From NCBI GenBank assembly GCA_030265395.1, contig JARFYF010000051.1, forward strand, positions 15,925,552 through 15,989,551: 64,000 nt of DNA. The letters run 5' to 3'. Below the pieces are notes generated by a model that saw only the letters and a list, made by a program, of their open reading frames with translations, did no database searches and was not told where the DNA came from. The DNA comes from Rhina ancylostomus. Taxonomy: Eukaryota. Position 1 is the first letter of the stretch. Each line of letters starts with the position of its first letter. The position numbers and the translations under genes are program-made. Shown here piece by piece: positions 3,499-25,820 of the stretch.

Positions 3499-3588
3499 GA
3501 GAGTGAAATTGAGAGCAGCTCAGCAGAAAGTCGAGTTTCCGGCAAGCAGAATATAATGTTAAGAAATGAAAAAACTTCTGTACTACAG
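3499..3588 (+). CDS. Plus-strand gene candidate first coding exon (ESEIESSSAESRVSGKQNIMLRNEKTSVLQ)
   Basis: aaaccag| acceptor, CAG|GTATGA donor, open only in phase 0, ATG at 3556 with A at -3. Confidence 0.5.
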
Positions 3589-6500
3589 GTATGAAAATTT
3601 TAAGTGATCATCATCAATAATCTCCCTGTTGAATTTTGCTCTTATAGTATGTTACGGACTAGGTTACAATTAGTGAGGTTCCTTTAAGATAGTGTGTGTG
3701 TGGCGTGCTTATGTCAATAGAAGATAAAGAACGTCATAACGTTGTTGTTGAAACAACCAGTCGGAGTCAGTCTGAAGGAGAGAGAGAGATGGAAGAACGA
3801 GAGAGAGAGAGAGAGAGAGACACCAGCCTGCTTGTTTACTCTGTCGATGGATGAGAAACAATAACTGTGACTGTCACTGCAATCCACGTATGGATTGTTG
3901 AGAGTAATCCGGTGGNNNNNNNNNNNNNNNNNNNNNNNNNNNNNNNNNNNNNNNNNNNNNNNNNNNNNNNNNNNNNNNNNNNNNNNNNNNNNNNNNNNNN
4001 NNNNNNNNNNNNNNNCAAGTTTAGTTAGTTTTTGGGGGTTAATGTTTGGGGTTTAACATTTTTACTTTTATTTTACTTATTATCATAAGTAGTTATTAAT
4101 AAAGTTTTTAACACTTATACATGTCTCAGTGTGTTTCTGTTGTTGCTGGTACGTAGCAAGTATTGTGATGAGCTCTAACATTTTTTTTCATTACTTTGAA
4201 AATGGATCTGAATGAAAGGATTTGTACCTTTATGACACCTTTTTGTGTTCAGGATGTGCCATTGTTTAACAGACATTTAAATTTATGAAGTACAACTACT
4301 ATTGTATTGTTGGCAAGCGCGGTAATCAACTTGTGCATGTTATGGCTCTGCAAGCAGCAAAAAGACAAACTAGTTGTGTTACAGAATGGAGATTAGTCAA
4401 GAGGACCCTTGTGGTATGGGTCTTTTGTACTCGTGTCTTGACAGAAGGGCAGTGGTATAGGGTACTTGGGCCAGTATGGGACAAGTTAACGAGTATCTTG
4501 TTTTCTACTGAACACGGTTTAAAGTTTTGTGTGCAGTAGGTCAGGCCTCGCATGTGTAACCATTCTCATAGGCCTTTCCTCTAGTATCTCTTACCATGAT
4601 GGAGAGTGATAGAGATCAGGACTGGGTAAGGGATAGAGATGGTGGGCAGCACAACATGGTGGACTGTAGGGCCTTTATTGTGCTGTATTGTTCTATGGTT
4701 CTATGGATAGAGGGAGAAAATTACAGGGTGTGTAGTGATGACCAGAAGGAAGATCGTGCAGGTAGTAAAAAGGGCTTGGAGAAAAAAACAGGAATGCTGG
4801 GGAGGAAATGATGGGGATGATACTGAATTAGGATCTGGAAGAAATTTGAAGAAAAGGTTGGAGAGATAAAGGGATCAATTGAAAGATTATGGCGACCAGT
4901 CAGAGAGTGGGGAAAAGTCTGGGGAGCAAGGGAGGGTGTTGAGAGGGCATTCAGACCAATCCAGGGGTGAGTGGAAATCAGGAACATACCTTAAGATTAA
5001 TGTCTCTGACTCCCCAACATTAGCCCCAGTAAAGTTGGGTCTCATAACTAAATCTGGAGCAGACTTCAAACCTCTGACTTTGAGTTTTATGCCATTTGTG
5101 AACCGTGCATGAGTAGTTAAAAATTATGTTATTTGTGTATGTTACATTGCGAATGCATAGTGAAGTTAATCAGTTCAATTTACACTGATTAACTTTCCTT
5201 ACATACCCAGTAGGAAGTAGATACTTTGAAGGGTCCTGATCAATTTTCCAGAATTGTGCAGTATTGTGTATTGATCACATTTACCATTCTTGTTTTAGAT
5301 AAACTTAACTTGCATAGCACATGAAATTCATGCACAGCATGAAAGAATTTCTAGATTAAAGTTCTCATCAGTGCAACACTCATCTGTCATATAGAGACAA
5401 AAGAGCTGGCAGTTGAAATGTCAGCTGGAATTACTGAGTGTTCATATGTACTTGGATGTGTTTCTAAAACTTTTGTTAGGGTATCTGATCTAATTCGGTG
5501 TCCTGAAATGGTAACTCTGTTTCTCTTTCTGCAGATGGTGCCTGACCTGCTGAACTCTTTTAGTATTTTCCATTTTTTTCATTTCAGATTTCCAGCACCT
5601 GCAGTTTTTTGATTTTCATAGTGTTATGATTAGCTTTCTTATTCTAAAAAGAAGGAAAGAGGAAGAAGAGTTATGACTAAGAGAATATTGATTTTCTTTA
5701 TTTAAGAATTTCATTCAGTGAATTTCATGTTCAAAGAACGAAAAAGACTCAATGGAGACTATTTATGGCATTCCTATATGTGATTGCTTTAGGGAAGTGC
5801 TGTTGATTCAAGTCCTTGGGACAGTGAAGAAGAAGGCCTTTCTAAACATAAGGAGGTTAAACAGGAGAAGAGGTAAACACATTATGTCATATTGAGATGG
5901 GATGACAATGACAATAAATACAGATAAACAGTTTTTAATTGCAACAGATGTATTTTTCCAAAACTTTTTTTCACATTTTGATTCCCTTCGTCTCTTAATG
6001 CTGCTGACACATTCTGGGGTTGTTTATTTGTATATTTGGTATATTTCTCCATTCTATTTCTTTTACTCTTATTGTGGTATATCAATAATCTATTCATTTA
6101 AGAGAGGGTATCACACCTGGGCTCAATCCAATCTTCACCTGATGTAAGAATAAGAACTTCAGAATTTGAAGCATAAGCAGCCCATTGATTCCTTGAGACT
6201 GTTCCACCATTTACCAAGATCATGGCCGATCCTGTATCTTGCCCACATTCCTGCCCAATCCAAACATCTTCTGATTCCCTTAATGTACAAAAAATAACTA
6301 TTGATCTCATCCTTGAATATTGGCAATTACTAAACACCCACAGTGTTCTAAATTATAATCCTCCATGTAAATATATTTCTCTTCATCTCAATTCTAGATG
6401 GCCAATCCCTTATCCTGAGACAATGCTTCCGAGTTCCAGACTCTCCAGCAAGAGGAATTAGCCTCTTTGACATCCACCCAATCAAATTCTTTCAGAATTT

Positions 6501-9500
6501 TGCACATATCAATGAGATTATCTAAACTCCAGTGAGCATAAGTTTGTCTTTCTCAGTTTCTCCTCATGGGAAAGCCCTTTCATTCTCTAGAATCAATCTG
6601 TATTGATTCTAAAATAAGTATATGCTACTTTGGGGAAGGAGACAAAACTGCACAAATAAGGTCTCTCTAGATAAAAGCCTTGTACAATCACAATGAGACT
6701 ATCTTACCTTGTTCTATAATCTGCTTGTGATATCCAAAATACCATTGGTTTTCCTTTATTTTGCCTTACCTGCATCTCAGTAACTAAAACAATATTCCTC
6801 TGTACACTAACCTTTATTAGTTTCCCACTGTTTAACAAGTAGTCTGTTTCTATTTTTCCCAAACAATACTCCACTAGTCATTTCTTTGACTATTCAGTCT
6901 GCTGATGACCCTTTTCAGACTTTTTATGCCATCCTCAGAGCTCACTTTTCTTCCTGCCCAGTATTAGCAAACCTGGATACACTTCATTCCATTTCTTCAT
7001 CTAAGTCATTAATATAAATTGTGCATAACTGCAGTTCCAACTGGCACCACACAGACTGTTGACCTGAAAGTGGCATTTTAATTCCTATTCTCTGCTTTCT
7101 GTCTTTTAACCAATTCTGAATCCATACTAATACTTTATGCCCAACCCCATGAGCCCTTATTTTAACAAAAAAACACATGTGTCACTCTGTCCTGCTAGTT
7201 GTATCCTTCAGAAATTATCCTGTGTTTGTCAAACTGTATAATTATTAAGAGTAGGAATCCTGACATCACTTTTCTCCTTTTCACAACAGTCCTGTTGAAT
7301 GGATCCTAGGGAATGGACCATTATCCTGTTGAGTTCAACAAACTCGACAAATACTGGTGATTGAATCTGGAACCTTACCAGAAAATTTGCGTTGTCCATT
7401 GCATACCAAACACCAGGGAGGACAAGAGGCCTGGGGCAGCATGCAATTTCCAAGTTGTCTGGACACAGTCACGAGATGTGACAAGAATCCCTCGGTATAA
7501 ATAATAATATTTCAAATGTAATCTTTTCAAAATAAGTAAATTACAGCACTCACAATAATAGTAACAATTTCCCCCTTTTTTGCAGTATTTTGACAACTCA
7601 TGGTGCTTAGTTGAAGATCTCAGCAGCTTATGGCTAGTTAGGCAGTGATGGAGCAATTAAATTCAGGGATGCTGAAGAGGCTAGAATTGGAGGAGTGCAG
7701 ACAGCTTGGCACGTTATAGAGAAGAAAGAGATTACAGAGATAGGCATGGGCAAGACCAAAAACAAATTTAAAAATTGATCTATCATTGACTGTATCAATC
7801 TGGGCCCACAAGCTCAGAGGCAATGGGTGAATGGGACTTGGTATAAGTTGGCTAAGAGGATCAAAGTTTTGGAATAACTTAAGATTATGGAATGTCCAGC
7901 AAATGAGGCCAAGCAGGAGTTTGTTGTAAGTTAGATTTAGAGACAACACAAGATTTTCAGCAGCAGATGAGCTATGTCAGGGCCGAAGCTGGGCAGTTTT
8001 AGGGAAGTTCTGGTGGCAAAGATGTAAAGTCCAAATTCAACTTATCTTGTTATCTTAACATTCTTTACATACAAGAAGGTAAGTATAAGGACAAGGAAGG
8101 AGTCCATTCAGCGCATTGAGTGTTCGCCACCTCCTAGGGGAGCAATTCCGAAAGTTGCATTCCTGCTTCTTATTTCTCTGTAGCCCTGTGAGTTATTCTC
8201 TTTCACACATGCCCATCAACTCCCCTCTGATTTTTTTTTTACGATTAACCTGTACCAAGGGGTAATTTACAGCAGGCAATTAACCTACGTGCATATCTTT
8301 GGGATATGAAAGGAAACCACAGTGCTCAGATGAAACCCATGTGGTCACAGAAAGAATGTGCAAACTCTGTGCCAACAGCACCCAAGAGCAGGATGAAACC
8401 CAAGTCCCTGGAGCTAAATGACAGAAGCTCTGACCGCTATGTCACTGTGCTGCCACCTAAGGTTGTATATGACATCAAGGTTACAAGCAGTCTTCTTCAG
8501 TTTTGGACAGTTGCCACGGTTATGATGGAGTTGATGGCTGTGGAATGAGATATGGCAAGGGCAGAAGACATTTGCTTTAATCTACCTAATATTTAACTGT
8601 TTTGTCAGAAAACTGTCTGACAAATTGGAAATGGTAGGTGAGACAAGAGAGGCACTGGTGAGGTAGGGTTTGACCTCATTAATATGGACGTGGGAATTGT
8701 GTTTTCAGATGTTGCTGAGGACACCATGTAGTTGAAAAATAGGAGGGGGTCCAAGTTTGATCCTTTGGGCACACCAGAGTTAATGATGTGGGAGTGAGAG
8801 GAGAAACCATTTCTAGAGATTCTTGGGCTTTGGCTGGGTAGATAAGAAAGGCACCTTCCAACCGGAGGACAGTGGAGAACCATTGAAGAAGGGTGGTTTG
8901 GTTAACAAAGTATTTGTCTGGGAACAGGTCAGGATGACATGGGCAAATAAAATACTTTTGTCACAAAGACATAAGTTGTTACTAGTGACTTTGATTGAAG
9001 TTCCTTCAATACTGTGATGGAGTGGAAACTTGATTGGAGAGATTCAGACAAGGAGTTCTAGGTAAGGTGGGCACAAGTTTGGATGTTGTAACACTCACTA
9101 ATCAACCAGCCAGTGATAATCAGATTTTTAATTATTTTAGTACACAATCAAGGGTTCCATTTTGTGAATAGCTAGCACCAGTTGAAGATGAGTCAAAGTT
9201 AATTAAAACATCATCAGATCCTGTGTCCCACCATCTGTGCCACTGTGCTTAAACAAACTGCTATGCTCCAGAATTTTGTGTGCATTGCTAATGCAATACG
9301 CCACTTCCTCAGCCACACCTCCATACCTCCTTACCCCCTACCCTTCTACCTTCAAAATTCATCAGTTAGATCTCCAGCTCAACATTCAATGCTTCAGAAA
9401 AGCTTTCACACATACTGCTTGTCCAAACTTTGCACCAACATGACAGTCTTCACACATTGTTAGCTATTCAAAGATGGAATTATGGATGTCTGTCTCTGAC

Positions 9501-12500
9501 TCAGAGAATGTGTGTCTGAAAGCAGGACTTTTAAGGTATAGATCCAAGTATCAAGAGCTTTAACCTTAATGTACCTTGAGAGCTCATAGTATTTCTTTCT
9601 GAATTGCTTTATGTTTCTTCTGGCAGTCCTGTTTGGTTGCTCTGCATCTATCTCTTGTCTGTCATTTTAAGCTTTGGCCCTTCAAGACCTCCAAATCCCC
9701 CTAGTCTAAAATATCTGGCATGAATTTCATCCACGAGGACCTCCAGTTGCAATCTATAAAGTGGTGCAGCCACACTCCCTCCCATTTCCTATCTAATGCT
9801 CATTTGAGAATCCATGCAAACTGCACCTTATAACAGCTTTGTGGATAAAGATCCTTTAAAGGCTGGAATCTTGACCCGTTAGCTCCATGACTAAGTACTG
9901 AAATGTGCACACATTGTTGCACTAGGAATCTATTGACATCGCTGCCCAAAGATATCATAGGCAGGAGATGACCAGCTGAAAGAACAAGGCAAACTGGAAG
10001 TGAAATAATGTCATTACAGGGTGAGCTTTCCTGTCAAGATGAGTTGATCTGGTATCTCAGTGACACTTGCTGTGGCATGAATGCAATACTCATGACCCAT
10101 CTAATCACACTGAAGCAGCAAGAGCACGCTGTAGTCATCAGCCCAAGTGTCCCATCCCTAGGAGCTGTGGATGTGGCCAAGGAGGATATCTGTTCCAAAC
10201 TTGAAAATGTTTCCAAAACCCTTTCAAACCCTAACCTACATTCTAGATGGAGGCTAACTGATATTCCTGGACAATTTCATTGCCAGAATTGGAAGAGATG
10301 TACTCCTCTGGCAAGGAAGATCTAGGAAAAGCTAATTCAAACAGACTCCTCCTCAGCAACAAAATGCTTAGAGCATGGTAATATCAATGCCAAAATCCTG
10401 GTGTGCCAGAGCTAAATGCAGGACCGCATGGCAATGCTCGCTCCAGGCACTGGCCTCTGTTAGATTGTTGTTGTCCAAGCAAAAGGCTACAAGGATGTCT
10501 GCACCATCCATGCCATTACAGATAATGATGACTTTTGGATGGACTGCATCCCATCATCTATTATTTCTGTCAGGCTAGTCCCAAAACATCAACAGCAACA
10601 GAAATGGTATTGAAGGGAAATCAATGTTAAAGATCTTAAGGACCCCAGAATGACAGTTCTTCCCAGACAGCATTCTCATAGGTAACCTGACAATTCCTAA
10701 CCAGCAGGAGTCGCAGATAGTCCGTAGCACCTGGACTGTCCTGAAAGCTGCTCTAATTAGCACCTGTGAAGAGATTCTTGGCTTTTAACCAGAAAACCCC
10801 AGGTCTAGTTTCATGAGAATGAGCAAGAGATGCAGGAGCTCATTATTGCAGGCTTTCTTGGATTGGAAGTACCAAACAAATGACTGTATAGGCTCCTGGA
10901 AATGGAGGTACAGTGGAACACCTGTGACCTAAAAAAAAGATGATGGGTGAAAAATAAACAGAGCATCTCACAATTCACTAAAGACTATGATATGCACAGA
11001 TTCTTCAGCACTGCTGAGACTATCTATGGCCCAACACCCCACTAAGAGCCAAGAGCGAAGGTTGATTTATCAAGATTGGTGATGGGGTCAGTCTACATTG
11101 GAATGAAAACTCCTCAGTTCTGACTACGTTATTAGCAGACCTTGCCACCACCCCTTTTGAACAAGGTCACATAGGTCATATGCCCTTAAGAGTAAATGTT
11201 TCACCTGCTAAAATTTGAAAACTTGCCAAAGAGGAACTTTTGTCATATGTTCACAACCTCATCTCCGTGTCTGGAAAGAGAAAGGTGTACCAGGGATATC
11301 AAAGAGGTTTTATAATCACAGTCATCTTCATGATGGATAACAAGGAGACAGATGCAGTTGCAGAGTGATCTCCCTCTATCTACTTCAGGGAAAGTCATCA
11401 CTGAGTCCTCCTCAACCACCTACTCCTGATGGCATTGTTAGCTCTTCATTGAAATATGAGAGAATTGATCTTACACAACAGCTACAAAACTGACCCCAGT
11501 GAAGGTTTATAGTGGACCTTTCATCCAAAAATAAATGTCTATATAAAGCTGCACTCCAATCTGAACTAAAAACCTGGAAAACTTGGATATCTTCCAATAC
11601 TTCAGAATCCACCTTTTGGTAAAGGTAGACATTAATGTTGAAATTCACTATTGCCCTTTGTGCACCAGCCAACCATCTGAGGAAAAGATTGAAGATCCAG
11701 ACAAACCTAACACAAAGCTCATGGTCCACCAGGCAGCACTAATCTCTGCCCTCTTCTATGCTTTTAAGACATGAACTACTCACAACAAGCACCTCAAAGC
11801 ACTGACGATGCTGTCTCTGCAAAATTCTGCAAATCTATTGGCAGGATAATCAAGCCAGTATCGACGCCATCTCCCAGGCCAGCATCCCCTAATTACACTC
11901 CATCAAATATGATAGACAAACCATTTTGTTCACATTTCCAGCATGGAACTTCCAAAATGGATTTTCAATTATAAGTTCCAATATAACAAGAGATTGCCCA
12001 ATGGAGAAAGGAGATGAATCAAAGTGTTCTTGGAAAAGTTGTAGCATCCTTAATGGCTCAAGGGAATCCCTAGCTGATAGCTACTCAAAATGGAGAGAAC
12101 ATGCAGGATGATATTGAGAACCTCCAGTCCCTGCATTGGTACATGCTGAAGGACTATATCACTTCCCAAACCACCTACTGGCTTGTCCTGTCTACTACCC
12201 TCTGCACTATCTATAGTGCAGTCTGTAGGTCTCACAAAGATCTTGTTAAGCACCATGGAACCCATAGCACTGAACTGGAAACAAGTCGTCCTTGATCCCA
12301 ATGGAATGCTTAAGAAGAAGCAATCAAAAACTACAGTCCTAATGCTCTAGCATGTATCAGCCTGGGTAAAAACTGCTCAGCATGTTTAAATGCTATTAAG
12401 GAGCAAGTGAATTTTTAAACAAATTGGTTTTGCAATATACACTTCTGAAGAAAGTTAACAAATCACTGAGTTGCCCTTACCCTTCTCCCACTCAAGAAAA

Positions 12501-15500
12501 ATTGTTAATTAAAATTGTTTCTGAACATTGAACAGAGAATGCAGTTGTTATGCCTGCTACTAATTTTCTCTCTTCTCAGAATGTCGAGCTACAAAAAGTT
12601 ATCAGACCGTCAGACGTCAAAGACACAAGCATCGACCAAACCTTCACTCCCTCTGAATGAAGGTTTTAGAGAGACTTTGAAAGGTAGTGGACATATATTT
12701 CTATCATTTGTGATTCATGAACTAAATGGAAAACTTTGAATGTGTATGTGGATAATTATCACAAAGGAAAAACAATTGATGATTCAACTGTGACTTAGTC
12801 CATACAGGTAGATAGTGATGTAGTACTGGATATCTTTCCAGATTTACTTATTTACCCAACTGCAGAAATCATGAGATAAGCGTAAGATTAATTACTATAT
12901 ATAGCTTAGAAAAGGGCCGTTCAATTTAGGCAGTCCATGCTGGATTTCACATTTGAGCCTCATTCCATCCTACCTCATCTAAATCTATTAGCCTGGCCTT
13001 CTATTCCATTTTTGCTCATATGTTTGTCCAGCCTCCCCTTAAATCTATCTGTATTATTTCTTTCAACCATGATTTCACCTCTTCGGCTGAATATTTCCAG
13101 CATTCTATTTTGGTTCAGATTTCTGGCAACTGCAGTGCTTTCTATTTCACAATTGTGGCACTTCCTTTTTCTCCCCGCTATGTTTTTATTTATCATTTTG
13201 TACTTAGATGTCCACCAGACAGATTCAGCTATGATTAACAAACCTTCACCACCCTTCCTCAGCCAGCACTGCTATTTGTGTCTTTCAGTTTGTCTAGATC
13301 TCCACCCTGTCACAGACATTCCCTTTGATCTCTCCATCTCCTCCTACTTTACATCATAAAATATGCTTTATTTCTAAGGTCATTTTAACTTGGTTCTCTC
13401 TCTATAGAAGCTGCCTGACCTGTTGAATATTTCCAGTATTTTCTATTTCAGATTTTCAGTACCTGCAATTTGTTTTGGTCTTGATAACCTCTGGAACAAC
13501 TTTTATTGATTGGTATATCTATCCACCAGTCTGTTTATTCTTCTACAACTCCTCCCCACCCTTAAACTTGCACTTTCCAAATAATAAAGGACCTCTCTTT
13601 TCCAACCAAAATGTACCAGCTTGGATTTTTTATGTTGAACTTTACCAATGTTTTTGTCCATTATGCATGTTTATTTATATTGTGTAACTTGTTGGAGCCC
13701 TCTGTGTTGTTTACCCTCAAAATATCTGTAAATAGTCTATTTGATTCCAGAGTCTAAATTGTTAATGTAAATTGTGAACAGCTGTGATCCTAGCATTTAA
13801 CCCATGGGGCAAACGGTTGCCCTTTGTTCCTACTTTCCTGTAGCCACCTATCAAGTCTTGGCCTGAAATGTCGACTGTTCATTTCTCTCTGTAGATGCTA
13901 CCTTGACCTGCTAGTTCCTCCAGCATTTTGTGTGTTGCTCCAGATTTTCAGCATCTGCAGTCTCTCTTGTGAATCTATTCTGCTGCATTCCCTGACTTTG
14001 CATTCTGTATTTGCATCCATTACTTTTCTTACCACCGATGTTAAAGTTGATCTGTCTATAATTCTCTGGATGTATTCTATTTCTCTTCTTAAAAATAAAC
14101 GATAATATATTAGCGTTTTCCAGTCCTCTGGTACTTTCTCTGATGTATTATTAAATAACTGCACTAATGCCTCTCCCCTACCCTAGCTTATTTTAAATTG
14201 GAATTGGTTTATTATTGTCACATGTACCTAGGTACAGAGTAAAACTTTGTTTTGCATGCCATCCATACAAATCATTTCATTCCAACAGTGCATTGAGGTA
14301 GTACAAGGGAAAACAACAGAATGCAAAATCAAGTGTTAAAGTTACAGAGAAAGTGTAGTGCAGCCAAATAATAAGGTGCAAGGGCATAACAAGGTACATT
14401 GTGAGGTCAGGAGTCCATCTTATCGTGCTAGGGGATTGTTCAAGAGTCTTGTAACAGTGGGACAGAAGCTGTCCTTGAGCCTGTTGGTACGTGCTTTCAG
14501 GCTTTTGTATCTTCTGCCCAATGGGGGGTGTTGGAGGAGGAGAAAGAATGTCCAGGGTNNNNNNNNNNNNNNNNNNNNNNNNNNNNNNNNNNNNNNNNNN
14601 NNNNNNNNNNNNNNNNNNNNNNNNNNNNNNNNNNNNNNNNNNNNNNNNNNNNNNNNNNCCAGGGTGGGGGGTGGGTGGGCAGGATGTTTGATTATGTTGG
14701 CTGCTTTACCGAGGCAGTGAGAAGTGTAGACAGAGTCCATGGAGGGGAGGCTGGTTTCAGTGATGTCCTGGGCTGTGTCCACAACTCTCTGCTGTTCCTT
14801 ACGGTCCCGGGCAGACCAGTTATCATATAAACTCGTGATACATCTAGATGGGATGCTTTCAATGGTACATCAATAAAAATTGGCGATCGTCAAAGGGGAC
14901 ATGCCAAATGTCTTTAGCCTCCTGAGGAAGTAGAGGTGCTAGTGTGCTTTCTTGGCCATGGCATCTACATGGTTGGACCAGGACAAGCTATGGGTGATGT
15001 TCACTCCTAGGAACTTGAAACTCTCAACACTCTCGACCTCAGCACTGTTGATGTAAACATTGTGTTGATGCAGCTTATTTACTATATTCTCCTTTCTATT
15101 TTAAATCTACACATTTCATTCTTCATCTTATCCTCCAACACCATGGTCACCCAGGTAACTGCTGAAGCAAAATAATTATTTAATATTTCTCTGTATCTCT
15201 ACCACCTCTGTATCGCTACCTGTGGCTTTATCCTGTCTGTCCCTTAATGGAGCTATTCCCTTTTATCTTTACTCATCCATGGAATCTCATAAGTGTTTAA
15301 TTTTCTTCTTTTAGTGGAATATGCTTTGCTTGCACTCTGTTGAACCCTCCTTTAATGCTTCCCATTGTTATTCTGCATTGTTTTTTTGCCATTGTTGTTG
15401 CCCAGTTTATCTTTTTTTTGCCCATTAATATTAGATTAGAAATGCCAATTGTAGAAACACCATTTCCTTATTCTCTTATCTTCTTCTGTCCAATAATATC

Positions 15501-18500
15501 AAAGTAGTCACATTCTTTATTAATATTTACATAATTTGTTTGCATATTTCTTTATTCATCTTGCTTCCATATTAGATGGGGTATCCATGTGAATTCTATT
15601 TTTATCTTCATTATAGACGCACCCCTTCTATTTGACTATTACTCAATAATTACCATTAGTCTGATTTACGCTTTGTCCTCTGTTATCTTTTTTTAAGAAT
15701 GTTATACCATCTGATGTTTAATTTCTAGTCCCAATTTTTCTGTTGCCATGTGTTGGTAATCTTTATCATGATTGCTTCCTATTTCCCTGTTTTATTTTGG
15801 ACAATATTTACTATGCTGCCTTGAGATTTTTAATATTTTTCATTGTCTTCTCATCTCTTCAATGACATTCTGAGTCATTTAATATTTGTTAACATGTACT
15901 TAGAGTTGGGACCCTAGAAGCTTTCCATATAGTTATACATGTTTTAATAGTCTGCCACCCTTTATATCCTAAAGCTATTATTGCCTCTTTGATAATGCAA
16001 GTAGGAATACAAGTTTTGCAGGTTTTCTGCATGTTTGACTTATTTATTGTGTCAGCTTTGTAAATGGTATTGTTTTCTCCAGAATCAGAAAATCATCGAG
16101 TTAGACTTTTCCCTAGAGACCTGAGCTTATCAACTGGCTTAAGCTGGCACTTCAATGCAGTGCTGAGAAAGTGCTACACTGTCAGAAGTATCTTGTAGAT
16201 GAAGTAGTAAACAGACTTCTGAATTTCATTAGCAGAAGTCCTGCTGTTTGGAAGAGAAGTTAAATTAAAGCACGTCTTCCACTAGGTGGACATTAAATTC
16301 CACTGCATCATTTTGTACAAGAGCTGAGAATGCATCAATATTTTATGCCTCAGCAAAGCCTTTAATGATTGTGTCATTTACTCTTGGTGTAAAAGTGATC
16401 ATGCTGAGAAAATTATTGCTGGGAAGCGCTGCTAGGATTCGAGCAACACAATATAAATTTGTTTCTTTATATAATAAGAATTGATCTCTTGTGAAGATTT
16501 TTTTAAACTGACATTTGTTCTTATTCATCCAGATACAGATTTTGTAGGCAGACGTTTCCAATCACCTGAGAAATTTCAGATAAAAAATCTACATGATCAA
16601 AGTTTTCAGTCTTATCAATCTTCAATTTCCAGAAACAAAACCACAGTACCGGATCCAATCACTCAGTCAAGTAAGTGCAAGTCAATCTGTTTCAAACAAG
16701 TTTTGCATTGTACTTTTATGTTAAATTGGGACATAAGGTAATTAAGCAATAAAAATGCCCCTGCCCCATCCAAATTTGGAACATTAATCTAAAATCTATC
16801 ATCTCATTATATGAGCACAAGCAGTTGTCAGAAGAGTGCTGTGGGTGAGAGGATGGATACAGAGTGAGGAGCAGGTGGGGCTGCTTCCTCAAAGCTCCAG
16901 TGAACAGGATTCAATTCAGAGTTCAGAGTCCTAAAGCTATAAATGCCTCTTTGATAACGCAAGCAGGACTATAAGTTTTGCAGGTTTTCTGCATGTTTGA
17001 CTTATTTATTGTGTCAGCTTTGTAAATGGTATCATTTTCTCCAGAATCAGAAAATTATTGAGTTAGACTTTGTGGAGTCTATGTGGAGTTTGCACAATTT
17101 CCTGTGGCCACGTGGATTTCCCATGGGTATTCATTCAGCTTCCTTCTACGTCCCAAAAATGTGTTGATTGGTAGGTTAGTTGGCTTCAGTAAATTATTGT
17201 AGCAGGGTGATACGTGAATCAGGGGAATTTATGAGCAAGTAAGCAAAGAAAGATTACAGGGAAATAAGTGGAGGAGTATGATTGATAGGATTGCCCCGAG
17301 AGTCGGCACAGTGTTGTGAAAAAAATATGTATATGGAAAATGAACATAGTTTTACACTGTATAGTGGTTAGCAAGATTTGCAACCTCTATTGGTTGATTA
17401 CCTAATATAATAAAAGCAGTGGAGACTTTCTTTCTGCAGGTTATCCTGGATGGAGTGATTCATCAAGCGAGACACAGCCAATATTCTCCATTTATGAAAG
17501 AGTTAATGAAGACAATCAGAAGAAGAAAGGTCAAGTCCTAATGGAGGAGAAGAAAAGGAAGAAAGGAAACATTAAAGGTGAGATGTAACAGCAGTGATAT
17601 AACGTCTGGTTTGAGTCTTCAAGAGTGAATCACAAATTTAAGTATCAAAATTTGTTTTGACTAGGAATTTCATTTAGAACATGCTTGTCCTGCATTACCG
17701 CAAGGTTGGATTAGAATCTGCTCCAAAGTAGTCCCTGGAGCTCAAGCTAGGAACAACTTTTATAAGAGCTTAAAGTTTAGTTACCCTGCTTCAAACAGGT
17801 TTAATATTGCTCTTGTTAATTAAATCATAACATAAAACAATAAAGGAATAAGAACCTCATTCCCCTACTCCCAATGCAAATTTGAAGCATCTTTGATTAA
17901 TATCATATTGCCTTCTCATCATATTCTTCTAGGCCTTTTCTCTGAACATCCATGGGTTTCTCTCTGTGATCTATCCTTGGTACAATTTTTCACAGAAAGG
18001 TTCATATTTTAAGAAAATAAAACCAAGTTCTCACCATGATGGGAGATTGTGGAGGCAAAGAACCTTCATNNNNNNNNNNNNNNNNNNNNNNNNNNNNNNN
18101 NNNNNNGAGGTCTAGGAATGTAGATTCTAGCACACATGACATTTTGCACGTTGTGTGTATTCAAACATTCCTTCCTTGAGACCTCAAACAAATTGAGTTG
18201 AAGTCCCCTGTGCAATACCAGTTTACATATGTTAAAGAATTTCTGGGCCATCATTTTGAAATCACAGGCATGCTCATCCTTATGGCCATTCATCTGCTTT
18301 ACTTAGTTGGTTGAAACTTTCAGTTTCTTTTGTACAAGGATATATTTAGAATATGACTAGCTGTTAAATGCAAATAGGATTTCAGAGTACTTATCAGATC
18401 TTGTCAATGGGAATTGTGATTCAATTTTACTAAGCTGGTTTCCTGGATAAGTACCTTTGGTCAGCATGTGCCATTTGCGTATGCCCAAATCAATTTATTA

Positions 18501-21500
18501 AAATTGATACCCCTCTTCTATTCAGCGTGGTGTTAAACAGCAATCACTCTGCTTGCAGCTGTAGTATTTTACTGCTGTTCATAGTACAGCTCCACTTCCC
18601 ATTGACAAAGTAGTAGTGAAAGATGTGTAGGTTATCTAATTAGCTCCTATTAAAAGCAAGAGTAAATTATTGTGATGAAAATGGGAACCAGTAGAAATAT
18701 TGCACAAAAAAACAAACTGCTGGAGGAACTCAACAGGTCAAGCAGCATCTGCGGAGGCAAAAGGGCATCAGCGTTTCCAGCATGTGCAGTCTATTGTATC
18801 ACCAGTAGAAATGTTAGGGTACTTTTCTTGTACTTCAGGGGATTGATTTTGGGAGGCAGATTTAATGAAACGAAATTAATTCCAAAAGAAGAATGAAATC
18901 TTTATACAAATAACATAGCATAATAGTGGAGCAAAATGTATATTGAACTTCACCTGTATGTGAACCCAGTTGAGACAGTCTCTGAATTACTTCTTGACAT
19001 TGTTGATTTGGTATTTTCATTTTCTTTCTAATATGGTGGTAGTATTATTATCTGTGATTCTTGTAATTCGTGTAAATAAAAGTAAATTTGTTTTAAAGAC
19101 ATTATTTTTGCATGCTCATTTGACTAAACAAGTGAATACCCAAGCCATTACAGTCAAGATTAACTAAATTTGATTCAGAGTCTGTGATGATTTAGTTAAT
19201 CTCAGTGTGAATGGTGATCAAAGGTTAATGAAGGGAAAGTCTACTACCTGTTCTCTTGGTCGCCATCCTACTAGAAACAGACATGCATGGCATTCCGAAA
19301 GGTTTCTCAGCTCTCTCCATTCCTTCAATAGTTCTCTGATATTAGCAGGCTTGACTCAGATGTGAAGAATAGTTTCATGTATGAAGGCTACTGATAGCAA
19401 TGCTTTCAGGATAGATTGTGGAAGTATGAAAAACATTAAATTGGATCAAATAAAATCTACATGGAACTTGTTTCCTTGCAATTTTCTGCCCTTTCCTCTT
19501 TGAAGACTTCTGTGGTTTGATTCCACATGTACCAGTGCATAAACAGTTGATATCAACATGGTGCTCAGGCATGGAAAGTTACCAGTTGTGTCATCTGATG
19601 TCTAAATACAAGAACTTTGGCTGCAGATGTTCGATTGGGCATTTGCATTTAGACAGGAACCTTGATTGTGTTTTTTTGCCTTTCACCAGTTGGAGCATGT
19701 GTCTAGCTATGATTAGTTGACTATATGGACCTTTCAGGTGTGCAAGGTCCTATGTCAGCTTGGATAATGCCCATTTCTATAAAATGGTTGGGAATATTCT
19801 GCATGTGTGTTTTCCAAGGAATATTCTTTTGTGTTTCCTACATCAGGAGAAAGTATTCAAAGTAGCAATGGGGGAAAGGGTGAATTTAGGAAAATCAAAT
19901 CTGGTCTATATTGCTTCATTCATTGAAAGATGTTTCTGTCTCTTTGAAATAAATCAAATATTTCTCAATCATTTTGACTGAATGTAGGGAAGCTTTATAA
20001 CCATTGATCCTTGTCTCATATTCTTATGTCAAAAAATATTTTGTTTAGAAACCTTAAAGAAANNNNNNNNNNAACACGAAGCACCTCAACATCCAGCACA
20101 AATCAAGCCAAACATCCACCAATATGCCCTACAAGGAAGACCTTGTATCCAGCCAGCAGTTTATTCAAGTTTTGTCCAAAGAGAAAACGGAGGTAGAGAA
20201 GATTTCTTCTGAGGCTGGGATGTCTTTGACAGAGGTAATGCACTAACATTTGTGCAAACTTGCTTTTCATGGTTATTCAAGCTAATGTATGTTGATATTA
20301 CCAAAAGAAACACTTTCCTCTGTTCATACATCCAGAATCACATTTTCCCATTCTGGGGATAGCATGACTGAATACAAATTAAATCTTCTTCCATTCTGCT
20401 ACAACTGTTCATCTCAACTCGACTTTGCACTGTACCAAGATGACAATGTTAATCATTTTCTATTCCAGTCATCCTGTCATTGTGACCAATTAAATACCAT
20501 TCATTATACAAGGTTCCGTAATTAATAAAATAGATTGTATAATGATCTCAGAAAACCATCCTCTTTAATTTCCTACAGCCTTGGCTTTATAGCCTTTCTG
20601 AGTCTGGTGGCTTCATCCACGCATTCATCAATTTTACTAATTTTCTATCATATTTGGTCATGCTTAATTTAAAACTATGACTTCTTTGTTCAAAGGAGAT
20701 CAGGGAACTTCTAGCTAATTTTTATCCTCAGTTAAAATTACCTTGAAAGATTTTCTGATTACTATTTCATTTCTACCAGTGGGCCATTGCTGTGTACAAA
20801 TTGTTTGCCATGTTACCTGTATTACAACAGTAACAACATTTTAGAATGTCCTGAAAGGCTGTGGAAGTTTCTAAATAAATGAAAGGTTTTGACTTCTTTT
20901 GAAAGAGTGGGTGGATTTTTTCAACACCTTTTCCTATCTGATAAACATCTCGTGACAATTATTCTTGTTAAAAATACACGTTAAGTACAAGCTGTTGTTT
21001 TCCCTTAAGTCCAAGTTCAACATCTTAATTCAGTTCTGTGCCAATGGTATTGAAAAACCAAACATTGACCTTTAACTGTGTCTACCAAGTTTATGACTTC
21101 TGGAGTAAGTTGTGATGCCATAATCAGTGAGGATAGAGAAATTTTCTGATGTGCATCTCAAGAATTCCTCAGCTGTACAAACATATTTTCCTTGTTGTAG
21201 GTTTCTTTGGCAGTGGTGGGAGCAGGTTTAGTTGATGAATTTAGTGGGGCATCCCATAAAATAAAGCTTCATGATTGTTGATATTCTAACTTCCTTCAAG
21301 GTAATTGATTTAAAGGCTTTAAAGGGCCCAACTTCCCATTATTACCTTAGTTAATTTGCTTGAAGTGTTATATATTCTAGTGCTCCAGGTCCCCCTATAC
21401 CAGGCTACAGCATTGAATTTCAATTATAAATCTGTGAACTTGTTTCTCTTCCACAGCTTGAACAGACAAATGTTGGCTTTACTGAGGAATGCATTGAACC

Positions 21501-24500
21501 CATAAGTGCAGGGGTAGCTTCAGAGGAAAATATAGTGGTTGGAATCATGAAAGATGCCCCGACTTATGAAAAAAATAAGTGAGTAGATTATATTAACATG
21601 TTCTAGTCACTTACGTCATGGAAAAGGACAAAGTACCTTCTAAGGTTTTATAAAGTTGGCAATTTTCACCTTATTGATCTGGACTAAGTTGAAAATATCA
21701 ATGGGTAATGGCAAAGTTAGCTATTGGTATTTGTTTATTATTATCATTTGTACCGAGGTACAATGAAAAACTTGTCCTGGCAAACTTGATCATTCCTTAC
21801 AAAGTGCAGTTACATTGAGTTTCTGTATTATTTGGATTCATCATTTAGGGTTAATTCCATTCCCCCCATTCTTACAGAAAAGTTTCACAACAGAAGTTAC
21901 CAGGTCAAAATGAACAACCATTTAGAAAAGGTCCACTCGTTGTGTGAGCTTTCTTTTAACCATCTAGTGTGGGTATGAAGTTGAAAGGAGTTTGACATTC
22001 TGGGAGCTTATTGGTATTGGTTTATTATTGTCACTTNNNNNNNNNNNNNNNNNNNNNNNNNNNNNNNNNNNNNNNNNNNNNNNNNNNNNNNNNNNNNNNN
22101 NNNNNNNNNNNNNNNNNNNNNNNNNNNNNNNNNNNNGAAGATCTATTTGATCAATAAGAATGGGAAAAGTATCATCATGCTGCTGTAGTGGGAACATGAA
22201 AGGGCATAACATGTAGGTCAGGGTGTTTAACCATTCTTGAGACTCAGTTTTGTTATTGGCAAAAACCAAACTGTTTATTCTCCTGCCAATGACAGCGTAT
22301 TTGCTTTAAAGCAACTAACTTATCATATTATGGATGGATAAAACCAGTACCCTGTATCAATAAAACTCATGGAAATTATATTTGTCCTTTGGACACATGT
22401 GTTATTTAATAGGTTAGTGGTTATCTCTACTGGCATGATCACATATCACAATGTCCACCGTAATAATGTTCAGGTTCCCAGTGAAACAATTAATTAACAT
22501 AATTGTGGAGGGTCTACTGCAAGGTTTCTGGAAGAATATTGGTATAGGTATTAGTTTATTATTGTCACTTGTACTGAGGTACAGTGAAAAACTTGTCTTG
22601 TATACCAATCATACAGGTCAATTCATTACACAGTGCAGTTACATTGAGTTAGTAGAGAATGCATTGAGGTAGTACAGGTAAAAACAATAATAGTACAGAG
22701 TAAAGTCTCACAGCTACAGAGAAAGTGCAGTGTAGGTAGACAATAAGGTGCAAGGTCACAACAAGGTAGATCGTGATGTCAGAGTCCATCTCAATGTATA
22801 AGGGAACCGTTCAATAGTCTGATCACAGTGGGGTAGAAGCTGTCCTTAAGCCTGGTGGTATGTGCCCTCAGGCTCCTGTAGCTTCTACCTGATGGAAGAT
22901 GAGAGAAGAGAGGATATTCCGGGTGGGTGGTGTCTTTGATTTGGTAGAACACAGTGGTGCTCCAGGGCTATATATCCATATAGGATATTGCTGCTGGTAT
23001 AGATCTAGCCCTGGGAACTCTCATTCCTTTGGCAACTTTGCTCATATAACTTTTTCTTCCTCCAATTTTCATTGGCCTGCCAAATTTTCCATTTTAATTT
23101 TGGACATTAGTACCTCTGTGAGACTGAGAAGGAATATAATGAAGTTTGCATTAGTCCTAGATGACTCAGAGAGCAATAGAGTCATGACAGCATAGAAATA
23201 GGCCCTCTGGTCCACTGAGGCCACACGGACAATCCAGCATCTATGTACGCCAATCCTACACTAACCGCATTTTATTCTTCTCACGTTCCCATCAACTCCC
23301 CTCAAATTCTACCATGCTTCTACACATTAGGGGCACTTTACAATGGACAATTAACCTACCAACCAGCACATCACAGCTCAGAGAAAATGCGAAACCTACA
23401 CAGACAACACCTGAAATCGTGATTAAACCTGTGTCGTTGGAACCATAAGGCAGCAGCTGTACTAACTGCGCCATTCAGTGCTCCAAGCTATATCACATCA
23501 TGGCATGTTTCTACTGGTATAGATCTAGCCCTGAGAGATCACATTCAGTTGACAACTTTGTTTAATATAACTTTTTCCCTTTTTTATTCCCCAGCCTAAT
23601 CTACTATTTTGATTTTGGACATCAGAACTTCTATGAGACAAAGAAGGAATATAATGAAGCTTGCATTAGTAACCTAGCAGACTGGTAAGCTATCTTGTTT
23701 TGTTTTAGACGTAGTAGTAGCCTGCAAAAGGACAATATGATTCAAAATTAGGAAGACTGAAGACACTAACCCCATTTTTATTCTTCCCACATTCCCATCA
23801 ACTCCCCTTAGATTCTACCACACTTCTACACAGTAGGGACACTTTACAATGGACAATTAACCTACCAACCAGCACACCTTTGGCATGAGGGAGGAAACTA
23901 GAACACTCATTTGATACCCATGTGGCTACAGAGAAAATGAAGACATTGTCTTTGAACCTAGCCACCAATTTTGTCTACTTTCCCAGAATATGGTAAACTG
24001 CTTTCTACTTCACCGTGCTACTTAATGCAGAACTGAACTTCTCATCCCATTTCCTTCCCAATAATATTTCTATCAGACCAAGAAGGACAATACTAAATAT
24101 TGACTATCTCCCATCTCTACCCTAGCACACCCTAATTACTAAAAGAACTTTCATTCATATCTTGTGACCTCCAGACTCAATCATTCCAGCATTTGTCCTT
24201 CAGATCTGGCATTCCCAAAGAAGTTCAGCTTATCCTAAACTCTGCAATCCTTATCCAAATCCATACGGCACTGGTCATTCATCATCTCTGTGCTTGCTGG
24301 GCATCATTGATGCCTGATTGTCCAATGTCACCTGTTCAAAATTTTCATTCTCATATTTATGTGTTTTTTGGTCAAGTGATACAATGTGACATTGTTGGAA
24401 AGAGCTGTTTGCGATGGTAGGGATCGTGGTAAATGTGGTCATTTCCTTCAGTCTCCAAAAGGACAATGTTCCTTCAATCCTGGCCTTCTGATTACTCCCT

Positions 24501-25820
24501 ACAGCCTTTGACCCATCACAAGCAAAAAAGCTTTTAACAATGTAAATCATTCGTCTTGAATTTCTGTGTTGAATTCTCTAGCCGATCTCACCTCTGCCAA
24601 CCTTCCTTCAACTTTTCACTTTGGCTAAGCTTCTAGCTATTCCTTCTAAAATTTCCTATTGTGGCTTAGTTAATTCTGCCAAGTTTTTATTTTACCAGTT
24701 AGGTCATGGGAAGAACATCTGCGAAGTTGAATCATATTGCTTTTATTAATAAATAACATACGAAATGTAACTCCTCTTACATATATAATAAAATCTTTCT
24801 TCCTGTTGAAATCAAAGCCGTTTACACGATCAAAGCCCCATCAGTTGTCTTCTGTAAATTAGATGATTGTGTAAACCAGGCTTGGCGTTAGCCAGTCATT
24901 ATTACATCAATTTTGATGGCACTTGACAGGGAATTGCTTCCTCATTACTGCACAAAGTCTCAGAGTGGACTTGAATGTACGATTTTCTGATTTGTAGTAA
25001 AGAGAAATGGTTACAAATAATCTATTTTCTACCAACAGCAATGTTAACTATTTTCATGCACAATGTATTATTCTGCTAAGTAAATCTTTTTATCCATTAT
25101 GATCAATTATTAAGTGACTACAACCTGAATTTCTTCATTGTTTAACATAGCAAATTGAAATATGCTCATCAATTTTCGATTGCAGTTTGAAGCCCATTGT
25201 TTGATTTTAAACTTGTAACGAATTATGAAAGCTGTATTACATATATATGGGATTTCTCCAATGGATAATCGGTGAAATCCATGGAGAAAGAGCAAACAGA
25301 TTTAACATTGCCATTTACATTATCTCTATAATGTAGCAAGAGTAGGCAATATCCAGAGGTTTATGTCCCCTTATTTTCAATATATTAGTAAAATAAATAT
25401 ATATAGATATAAACACTTCGTTACAAATTGCTGCCTAACTTTTTCAGGTCTGATGATGTGATTCGGCATTGTTGGAGAGAGCTGTTTGCGGTGGTAAGGA
25501 TCCTGGTGAATGTGGTCTCTTTGTTTTTGATTGAATTGGTGAATTTCTTAAGTCGGTCATTCATCCAAATCCTAGTGGCTGGACTCTTGACAGTAATTGG
25601 AGACCACGTGCTGAAGCCACTTCTGGCAACTTTGTTCAACAGCCTTCTGCAACCCATCATGATATTCCTGTTGAATATTTTCACCAGCATAAGAAATCTC
25701 TTGAACCCTTTAATTGACATCATCAGAAGACTGGTAATGCAAATAGCTGCTCTGTTGCACGCCTTCAAACTAGTGGAGGTGAATTTGAATCGTGCTCCAT
25801 CCATCCATCAGGAAGTTTAA
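3499..25820 (+). CDS. Uncharacterised multi-exon protein (~390 aa): hydrophilic N-terminus plus hydrophobic/amphipathic helical C-terminal domain
   Basis: Phase-consistent exon chain: 3499-3588 (0/0, candidate ATG 3556), 5793-5872 (0/2), 12580-12683 (2/1), 16533-16670 (1/1), 17440-17577 (1/1), 20049-20234 (1/0, contains 10 N), 21457-21578 (0/2), 25448-25820 (2/stop). The 5' end is uncertain. Confidence 0.7.
3650..4158 (+). mobile_element. Solo LTR (probably Gypsy-type) with 4-bp TSD
   Basis: Termini TGTTACG...CGTAGCA (near-perfect inverted repeat), flanked by AGTA at 3646-3649 and 4159-4162. Internal AATAAA at ~4098 and (GA)n at ~3778-3820. Confidence 0.8.
5793..5872 (+). CDS. Plus-strand gene exon (GSAVDSSPWDSEEEGLSKHKEVKQEKR)
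   Basis: tgctttag| acceptor, AG|GTAAAC donor. Phase 0/2 exactly bridges the flanking exons. Confidence 0.6.
7570..9080 (-). mobile_element. L2-type LINE fragments interrupted by an old V-SINE (~8100-8455)
   Basis: The minus ORF contains 'SGVPKGSNLDPLLFFNYM' (RT motif GVPQGS.LGPLLF..Y). A SINE head in reverse lies at ~8380-8455. Confidence 0.65.
9800..12321 (+). mobile_element. Near full-length but heavily decayed RTE-clade LINE
   Basis: Remnants of the APE endonuclease (WNV.TL, IDIAA, LMT.L.TL...HA.VIS), RT-region remnants, and a 3' end gtcgtccttgatcc...aagaagaag. Confidence 0.7.
12580..12683 (+). CDS. Plus-strand gene exon (MSSYKKLSDRQTSKTQASTKPSLPLNEGFRETLK)
   Basis: Strong acceptor ttttctctcttctcag|. 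Donor AAG|GTAGTG, with a possible alternative same-phase donor at 12663. Confidence 0.65.
14200..15060 (-). mobile_element. Rex1/Babar-type LINE 3' portion
   Basis: ORF ...SLPSMDSVYTSHCLGKAANIIK..HP...GRRYKSLKARTNRLKDSF.P..TRLLN. The same family occurs at 22540-22940 and 36290-36812. Confidence 0.75.
15967..16109 (+). repeat. Local ~140-bp duplicate, copy 1 (copy 2 at 16929-17071)
   Basis: cctaaagctat...gttagacttt occurs twice at high identity. Confidence 0.9.
16533..16670 (+). CDS. Plus-strand gene exon (DTDFVGRRFQSPEKF...PDPITQS)
   Basis: ttcatccag| acceptor, A|GTAAGT donor, phase 1/1. Confidence 0.72.
16870..17310 (+). mobile_element. Old tRNA-derived V-SINE (HE1-like) carrying an inserted local duplication
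   Basis: B-box-like ggattcaattc, then V-domain gtggagtttgcac...tcctgtg...gtggatttcc...tcccaaa. Split by 16929-17071. Confidence 0.6.
17440..17577 (+). CDS. Plus-strand gene exon (SYPGWSDSSSETQPIF...EEKKRKKGNIK)
   Basis: tttctttctgcag| acceptor, AAG|GTGAGA donor, phase 1/1. Confidence 0.78.
20049..20234 (+). CDS. Plus-strand gene exon (ETLKK..NTKHLNIQHK...EAGMSLTE)
   Basis: ttttgtttag| acceptor, GAG|GTAATG donor. An internal 10-N gap obscures the exact frame join. Confidence 0.68.
21457..21578 (+). CDS. Plus-strand gene exon (LEQTNVGFTEECIEP...KDAPTYEKN)
   Basis: tttctcttccacag| acceptor, AA|GTGAGT donor. Phase 2 matches the last exon. Confidence 0.82.
22540..22940 (-). mobile_element. Rex1-type LINE 3' fragment
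   Basis: Same 3' UTR (tttattattgtcacttgtac.gaggtacagtgaaaa) as the 14200 and 36290 copies; shorter pieces at ~21725-21820 and ~22010-22035. Confidence 0.7.
22951..23940 (+). repeat. Diverged tandem duplication (~520-bp unit) including a SINE piece
   Basis: ctggtatagatctagccctg...gaaggaatataatgaag.ttgcattagt at ~22995-23155 and ~23515-23670; a shared SINE segment at ~23260-23370 and ~23765-23875. Confidence 0.8.
24361..24450 (+). pseudogene. Degenerate partial duplicate (pseudo-exon) of the 25448 terminal exon
   Basis: Reads SSDTM*HCWKELFAMVGIVVNVVISF versus SDDVIRHCWRELFAVVRILVNVVSLF. The acceptor AG is lost (ttttttg) and there is an in-frame TGA. Confidence 0.85.
25448..25820 (+). CDS. Plus-strand gene terminal exon, hydrophobic helical domain (SDDVIRHCWRELF...GDHVLKPLLATLFNSLLQP...AFKLVEVN...HQEV*)
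   Basis: ctttttcag| acceptor preceded by a ctaac branch-like site; ~123 codons with protein-like amphipathic periodicity. Confidence 0.88.

Follow-up and report, generated by a model that had tools for sequence, protein, structure and literature searches.

The 64,000-nucleotide stretch of Rhina ancylostomus DNA analysed here (the window) carries, at positions 3499-25820 of the forward strand, a gene that is real, conserved and single-copy, and that belongs to an ancient family extending from a choanoflagellate to insects and birds whose function is uncharacterised. The protein joins a long disordered stalk to a predicted C-terminal helix, and we propose, as a possible though not a probable arrangement suggested by structure prediction and by analogy, that this one proline-punctuated amphipathic helix could lie in the membrane leaflet that faces the cytosol, packed with copies of itself into a caveolin-like ring or disc. 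What is new is limited to function and family; the gene models are already in public annotation.

Gene structure

Shark and ray proteins mapped by tblastn place nine coding exons on the + strand between 3499 and 25820, each of the nine being matched by these proteins, with canonical splice sites (AG at 9/9 acceptors, GT at 8/8 donors) and phases that agree. The first-pass annotation had described an eight-exon gene here; the gene, its span and its phase-consistent chain are borne out, while the count rises to nine. We infer that the exon it overlooked is 23595-23684, because this exon is 90 nt long and phase-symmetric, so that the chain without it is still in frame.

The first exon in the window (3499..3588, phase 0 to 0) is placed by its AG/GT borders, its phase and a tblastn match to the protein P0002. 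Borders, phase and tblastn likewise support 5793..5872, with the first Trp-acidic motif SPWDSEEE (5811-5834); 12580..12683, in the disordered stalk; 16533..16670, a stalk exon that also coincides with an exon-bounded contig piece from a related organism and is missing from the Amblyraja isoform X2 protein; 17440..17577, with the second Trp-acidic-like motif GWSDSSSE (17448-17471); and 21457..21578, where the stalk ends. The remaining stalk exon, 20049..20234, contains 10 N (20063-20072), and its AG/GT borders and phase fit once the N are dropped. The conserved domain opens in 23595..23684, which encodes a YxFDHG-type motif and the first turns of the predicted long helix and is placed by conservation and by a 100% match to residues 78-108 of the protein P0001. 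The last coding exon, 25448..25820 (AG acceptor, phase, conservation), encodes the rest of the predicted amphipathic helix, with prolines at 25617, 25653 and 25707 (99-100% conserved), the conserved terminal F[RK]LVEVN motif at 25764-25784 and the stop at 25818-25820; all of these features are on the + strand. The last-exon domain has a single match in the 2.2-Gb genome.

The nine exons give a chain of 436 aa to the stop with no internal stop, provided that the 10 N at 20063-20072 are removed; when they are retained, the chain contains 16 stops. Considering that homologues have no insertion at this position and that a contig from a related organism spans it with 10 gap positions, we read the N as a gap placeholder for zero bases. 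A real frameshift in the Rhina ancylostomus assembly is the possible alternative.

Two degenerate copies lie on the + strand outside the coding chain. One, at 22957..23370, is a copy of exon 23595-23684 with its flanks (74% identity) that has an in-frame stop and has lost its splice sites; the other, at 24369..24449, copies the 5’ end of the last exon (its first 80 bases); it contains an in-frame TGA and lacks an AG acceptor.

The first coding exon was not found in the 50 kb upstream of the window, where the adjoining ~6 kb read N. Residues 1-34 of the skate protein match another scaffold (G000:C46:6751651-6751752, - strand; locus L018 4957-5052) at 74-75% identity; an ATG and 24 codons are followed there by a phase-0 GT donor compatible with the first exon in the window. 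Together with the window exons it would bring the protein to ~460 aa, the length seen in skate and catshark (459-462), and it is likely the start-codon exon of the gene. Its location on a different scaffold from the remaining nine is probably an assembly error, a misplaced contig; a duplicate or a true rearrangement is possible and less preferred.

Three contigs, from a single related-organism run that is guessed to be RNA (no sequencing run is on record as such), start or stop within two bases of exon borders (16531-16671, 20047-20232 and 25447 onwards). DNA-like runs, by contrast, extend into the intron before the last exon. The contig ends at exon borders hint at splicing of the gene, although the table of joints was taken up by repeats and showed no junction.

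An ancient family without a name

A protein search returned eight orthologues, every one of them from a shark or ray and annotated as ‘uncharacterized’, the closest being sawfish (Pristis) LOC127580504 with 98% identity to the last exon; Leucoraja LOC129707869 is 89% identical over the same exon. The gene had been put forward as undescribed, which holds for its function but not for the protein, already present as uncharacterised in RefSeq/GenBank for at least eight sharks and rays. The same domain occurs in Xenopus tropicalis LOC100490973 and Drosophila willistoni GK12348, both automatic models with neither family name nor function.

A profile of the eight shark and ray proteins matched 223 cluster representatives at E<=0.001 (164 at 1e-10), and in the 150 of the 223 that were listed, the best stretches outside the shark and ray rows centre on the C-terminal 110-150 positions. 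Taxonomy was looked up for 30 of the 150 listed representatives and gave an organism for 24. The named vertebrate members come from amphibians, a turtle, an alligator, lizards, ostrich, a characin, a gar and a lamprey, and the named invertebrate members from a starfish, a bivalve, amphioxus, a brachiopod, an ant, a snail, a horseshoe crab, an annelid, a ribbon worm and Drosophila willistoni. The choanoflagellate member, from Salpingoeca urceolata, is a transcriptome record in which contamination is possible, and it forms its own long branch. In a quick tree of 130 domains (the thorough search was incomplete), insects, sharks and rays, and tetrapods form the expected groups and nothing points to an old duplication; the family is apparently conserved as a single copy. 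Among the matches listed, with 24 organisms named for the 223 representatives, there was no mammal or nematode, while birds, reptiles and amphibians score strongly; lineage loss in mammals is possible, as a lead only. In an Atlas search the clusters retrieved were unnamed ones from arthropods and molluscs (top score 0.95), and no named cluster was usable. A divergent member of 184 aa, P0156/P0177 (JGI/IMG, Logan and ENA records), is the lone gene call on contigs of 11-15 kb and has the longest branch of the tree; that P0156 could be a viral gene was rejected, since it had no relative in viral contigs.

The claim that the domain belongs to no named family stands, and no confident match to a well-characterised family was found. 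Pfam, run on the window domain and then on 67, 130 and 144 members, gave nothing near the cut-off for the domain, and neither did NCBIfam and PHROGs on 150 members. Strong matches were confined to DcpS_C and kinase domains in P0039 and P0132, two gene models that appear to be fusions. A sequence search of the PDB gave low-complexity matches to the stalk, two chance matches and otherwise none. In a literature that was largely non-subscription there was no name, domain or paper for the family, though the D. melanogaster identifier may carry screen or expression data. A conserved, apparently single-copy family that runs from choanoflagellates to insects and birds and has neither name nor paper is a real gap, and the Drosophila orthologue opens the question to genetics.

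The predicted C-terminal helix

The domain quoted in the first-pass annotation lies at 25449-25817 (+), with the motifs and the proline spacing of 12 and then 18 residues as described there. It had been given as ~120 aa; the domain is real, and its conserved extent is ~150 aa, beginning in exon 23595-23684 and continuing through the last exon. AlphaFold2 predicts one unbroken helix both for P0001 (residues 98-214, block pLDDT 90-98, pTM 0.36, with the stalk disordered) and for the window’s last exon (residues 2-106, pTM 0.52), with no loop or turn anywhere along the 105-117 residues in either model. AlphaFold2 often gives a straight helix for any long helical segment without long-range contacts. 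Given the low pTM values, the monomer would have no core of its own.

The helix is nearly free of indels in the 130 members compared, with no indel-tolerant loops, and P165, P177 and P195 (P0001 numbering) are 99-100% conserved and R215 98%. Its Kyte-Doolittle mean in the same members is +1.08, compared with +0.88 to +0.94 in three caveolins, which would seem too apolar for an isolated soluble helix. For the best 19-residue hydropathy window the median is 2.07, a value that would ordinarily be taken to indicate a membrane-spanning segment, and the longest run without D, E, K, R, N, Q or H has a median of 11 and reaches 19 or more in just one of the 130. At 22 of 102 helix positions, half or more of the members have a polar residue; these positions follow one another at intervals of at most 12 and, segment by segment, fall within arcs of 20-131 degrees. 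The conserved polar positions of P0001 are E119, R125, E/Q137, R140, D160, K164, N172, Q176, N184 and R190. Because polar positions are confined to these arcs and apolar runs are short, the predicted helix is, by its residue pattern, one whose apolar face is broad and whose conserved polar stripe is narrow and runs its whole length; its hydrophobic periodicity is 92-104 degrees. A helix in one leaflet fits better than a membrane-spanning one, because the polar stripe is narrow and a single member in 130 has a 19-residue apolar run.

A conserved Y-x-F-D-H-G ... Y-Y motif precedes the helix. The terminal motif is found in 110 of the 130 members, at a median of 16 residues from the C-terminus; it is coil in both monomer models and has a periodicity peak at ~142 degrees, against ~170 for a clean strand. 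In a covariation analysis (MI-APC, Neff ~108) the top pairs mirrored the split between insects and non-insects and were discarded.

The stalk and its Trp-acidic motif

The stalk in the window measures 283 aa and is rich in S, E, K and Q, in good agreement with the long hydrophilic stalk of ~270 aa that had been claimed. No signal-like or membrane-spanning segment was seen in any of the 70 stalks of at least 150 aa. Tryptophan followed by three of D/E/S occurs in 24 of these 70 stalks, compared with a shuffle mean of 2.7 and a maximum of 8. A stricter form is present in 44/81 non-insect and 2/38 insect proteins, counts that include redundant relatives and use insect labels assigned in this analysis. 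The motifs are kept in many deuterostomes and lophotrochozoans and in the choanoflagellate protein, within a stalk that is otherwise variable.

The motif resembles the W-acidic adaptors of kinesin light chain described in PMC6214655 (SKIP, calsyntenin-1) in placing a tryptophan before acidic residues and serine in a disordered, cytosolic-type region. As in the SKIP peptide of that source, many invertebrate members have a WDDS core, and some members carry two copies of the motif. Unlike SKIP as described there, the family has small residues (G/S/N/P) and no Leu-Glu before the tryptophan, and its acidic side comes only after it; and in contrast to W-acidic adaptors, the motif is nearly absent from insects (2/38). 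An acidic kinase site, or a site for another adaptor, is an equally good reading of it.

Proposed arrangement at the membrane

The simplest reading is that the family protein is a monotopic membrane protein. The long helix would lie flat in the cytosol-facing leaflet, with its broad hydrophobic face among the lipid tails and its narrow polar stripe either making contacts between protomers or facing the cytosol. The three invariant prolines would bend the helix to an arc, copies would pack together, in the manner of caveolin, as a ring or disc, and the terminal F-R-L-V-E-V motif would pair between protomers at the hub. From this assembly the disordered stalk of 280 aa would project into the cytosol, where its Trp-acidic motif could recruit a partner. 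Points counted for such a disc are the single helix, the low pTM, the apolar face, the short apolar runs, the conserved prolines and the lack of a membrane-spanning segment in the stalk; counted against it are the median 19-residue hydropathy of 2.07, the absence of a 24-residue apolar run, the coil predicted for the terminal motif, and the missing hook and pin. If true, the family would be a second animal membrane scaffold of caveolin design, which would make that design reusable or older than thought.

Because the helix would have no core of its own, it needs partners, but these need not be copies of itself. The helix might instead be a structural subunit, wrapped around another protein or bundled with it in either a membrane complex or a soluble helical bundle, and we regard this as unlikely but as the alternative to be taken most seriously. 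Its near-invariant polar residues and almost indel-free length fit a fixed partner surface, and the periodicity of 92-104 degrees includes the 11/3 spacing of right-handed bundles. However, the apolar face takes up clearly more than half of the helix, a larger share than a coiled coil normally buries, and no analysis that was run suggested a partner. If the helix turns out to belong to another complex as a subunit, the finding would drop in value to that of a new domain family. We prefer self-assembly with a hub motif, because the order of the elements is that of caveolin units as given in section 10 of PMC12330381, which the layout of the family matches.

Relation to caveolins

By analogy, the family may work like caveolin. 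Caveolins (PF01146; CAV1 8S disc, 7SC0; sea-urchin, 9DN0) share with it a layout of a disordered, variable N-terminus followed by a long hydrophobic helical run broken by prolines, and in the family both sequence pattern and prediction show the caveolin-type feature of a disordered N-terminus leading into a long amphipathic helical region punctuated by prolines. Both have a short conserved hydrophobic/basic motif near the C-terminus and a similar mean hydrophobicity, and both reach choanoflagellates and animals (for caveolins, according to PMC12330381). They differ in the length of the helix (~100-117 residues in the family, ~89 in caveolin), in the 24-residue apolar run of caveolins, in place of which the family has a regular polar stripe, and in the ~280-aa stalk, which is unlike caveolin. 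By comparison with the genuine caveolins of this genome, no counterpart of the caveolin signature, or of hook and pin, was detected in the family, which has the different motif Y-x-F-D-H-G ... Y-Y before the helix. The family is present in Drosophila willistoni, whereas D. melanogaster lacks caveolin according to PMC12330381.

We consider it improbable that the family and caveolin are true remote paralogues, with common ancestry as well as common design. Caveolin was the commonest weak Pfam match (4/130 members, then 6/144, E 0.0099-0.19), all six matches ending at profile positions 127-130. The family HMM scored three caveolins slightly above shuffles, with 15, 6 and 17 of 300 shuffles reaching the score, and both families go back to choanoflagellates. 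On the other side, none of the 144 members (five of 149 new representatives having been omitted as fused or truncated) reached the curated PF01146 cut-off of 25 bits, the best scoring 16.3 bits (E 0.0099), and the window domain gave no match to PF01146 at E up to 1. The six matches are not independent, because four of them fall in the insect clade of the tree, and they are not specific, because an unrelated phage tape-measure family recurs about as often (7/150 members) and at a similar level. With hhalign, the probability of a match to caveolin was 0.6%, against 0.7% for the reversed control, on a thin caveolin profile (Neff 2.2) to which a metagenome scan contributed one sequence. A domain-only profile searched against a PDB library containing 7SC0 and 9DN0 matched neither with E allowed up to 10, no usable match came from the named clusters of the Atlas, and the alignment registers to caveolin disagree between methods. 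A one-gap profile alignment (score -103, reversed -110), whose score was reached by 1/60 column shuffles and by 0, 1 and 0 of 40 block shuffles, had a register unlike that of Pfam and was not taken as support. We therefore do not assign the family to the caveolins, given an hhalign result equal to its reversed control, negative PDB searches, unstable registers and an equally frequent tape-measure family.

A broader version, in which the family would be a second, pre-animal branch of a caveolin superfamily, with a larger amphipathic disc and a long motif-bearing tail, kept in Drosophila, fishes, amphibians, reptiles and birds, with a possible loss in mammals, is in our judgement quite doubtful. 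The genome also has at least five ordinary caveolin loci (G000 C29, C94 and C77; L010-L016), so the gene at 3499-25820 does not replace caveolin in Rhina ancylostomus.

Other membrane folds

In structure searches, Foldseek returned no match for either AlphaFold2 model, and VIA-align gave generic coiled coils with none at Z>=8 (best Z 6.8, rmsd 13.9, 120 aligned; and 7.2, rmsd 12.6, 107 aligned). Long generic helices dominate the VIA-align output, and caveolin was not among the best 50 matches listed, which says nothing against a caveolin-like fold.

The hydropathy maxima near 2.0 over 19 residues, together with the conserved one-sided stripe of E, R, D, K, N and Q, might point to a domain that folds back at the prolines and crosses the membrane as an oligomer, with the stripes lining a pore or buried, like a channel or transporter subunit. 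This seems rather improbable: no turn is predicted in the 105-117 residues, there are no indel-tolerant loops, and charged residues recur every one to three turns.

Reticulon-, REEP- and oleosin-type proteins are monotopic, with a proline-containing hydrophobic helical region and a long hydrophilic tail. The family is like them in combining such a region with a long tail, and differs in having a single predicted helix and none of the long apolar hairpin arms on which they rely. The first-pass annotation had offered a membrane-embedded hairpin or an amphipathic scaffold, of which the scaffold fits a strongly amphipathic proline-punctuated helix, whereas the hairpin sits badly with an unbroken helix and with an apolar run of 19 or more in 1/130 members. 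Despite the three invariant prolines within a hydrophobic helical region, a reticulon/oleosin-type hairpin targeting lipid droplets or curved ER is the least probable of these readings, given the single helix in both models, the lack of long apolar arms and the lack of any Pfam match to reticulon, REEP, oleosin, seipin or perilipin at E up to 1 in 144/144 members. One of 150 members weakly matches a model of a bacterial lipid-droplet protein (E 0.013), no more than chance would give.

Neighbouring features of the window

Convergent with the gene at 3499-25820 is a multi-exon cadherin-repeat gene at ~42199-53317 on the - strand, one exon of which matches Pfam Cadherin (E 1.2e-4). Further along, low-complexity tandem-like repeats at 56300-59150 give rise to long spurious open frames on both strands.
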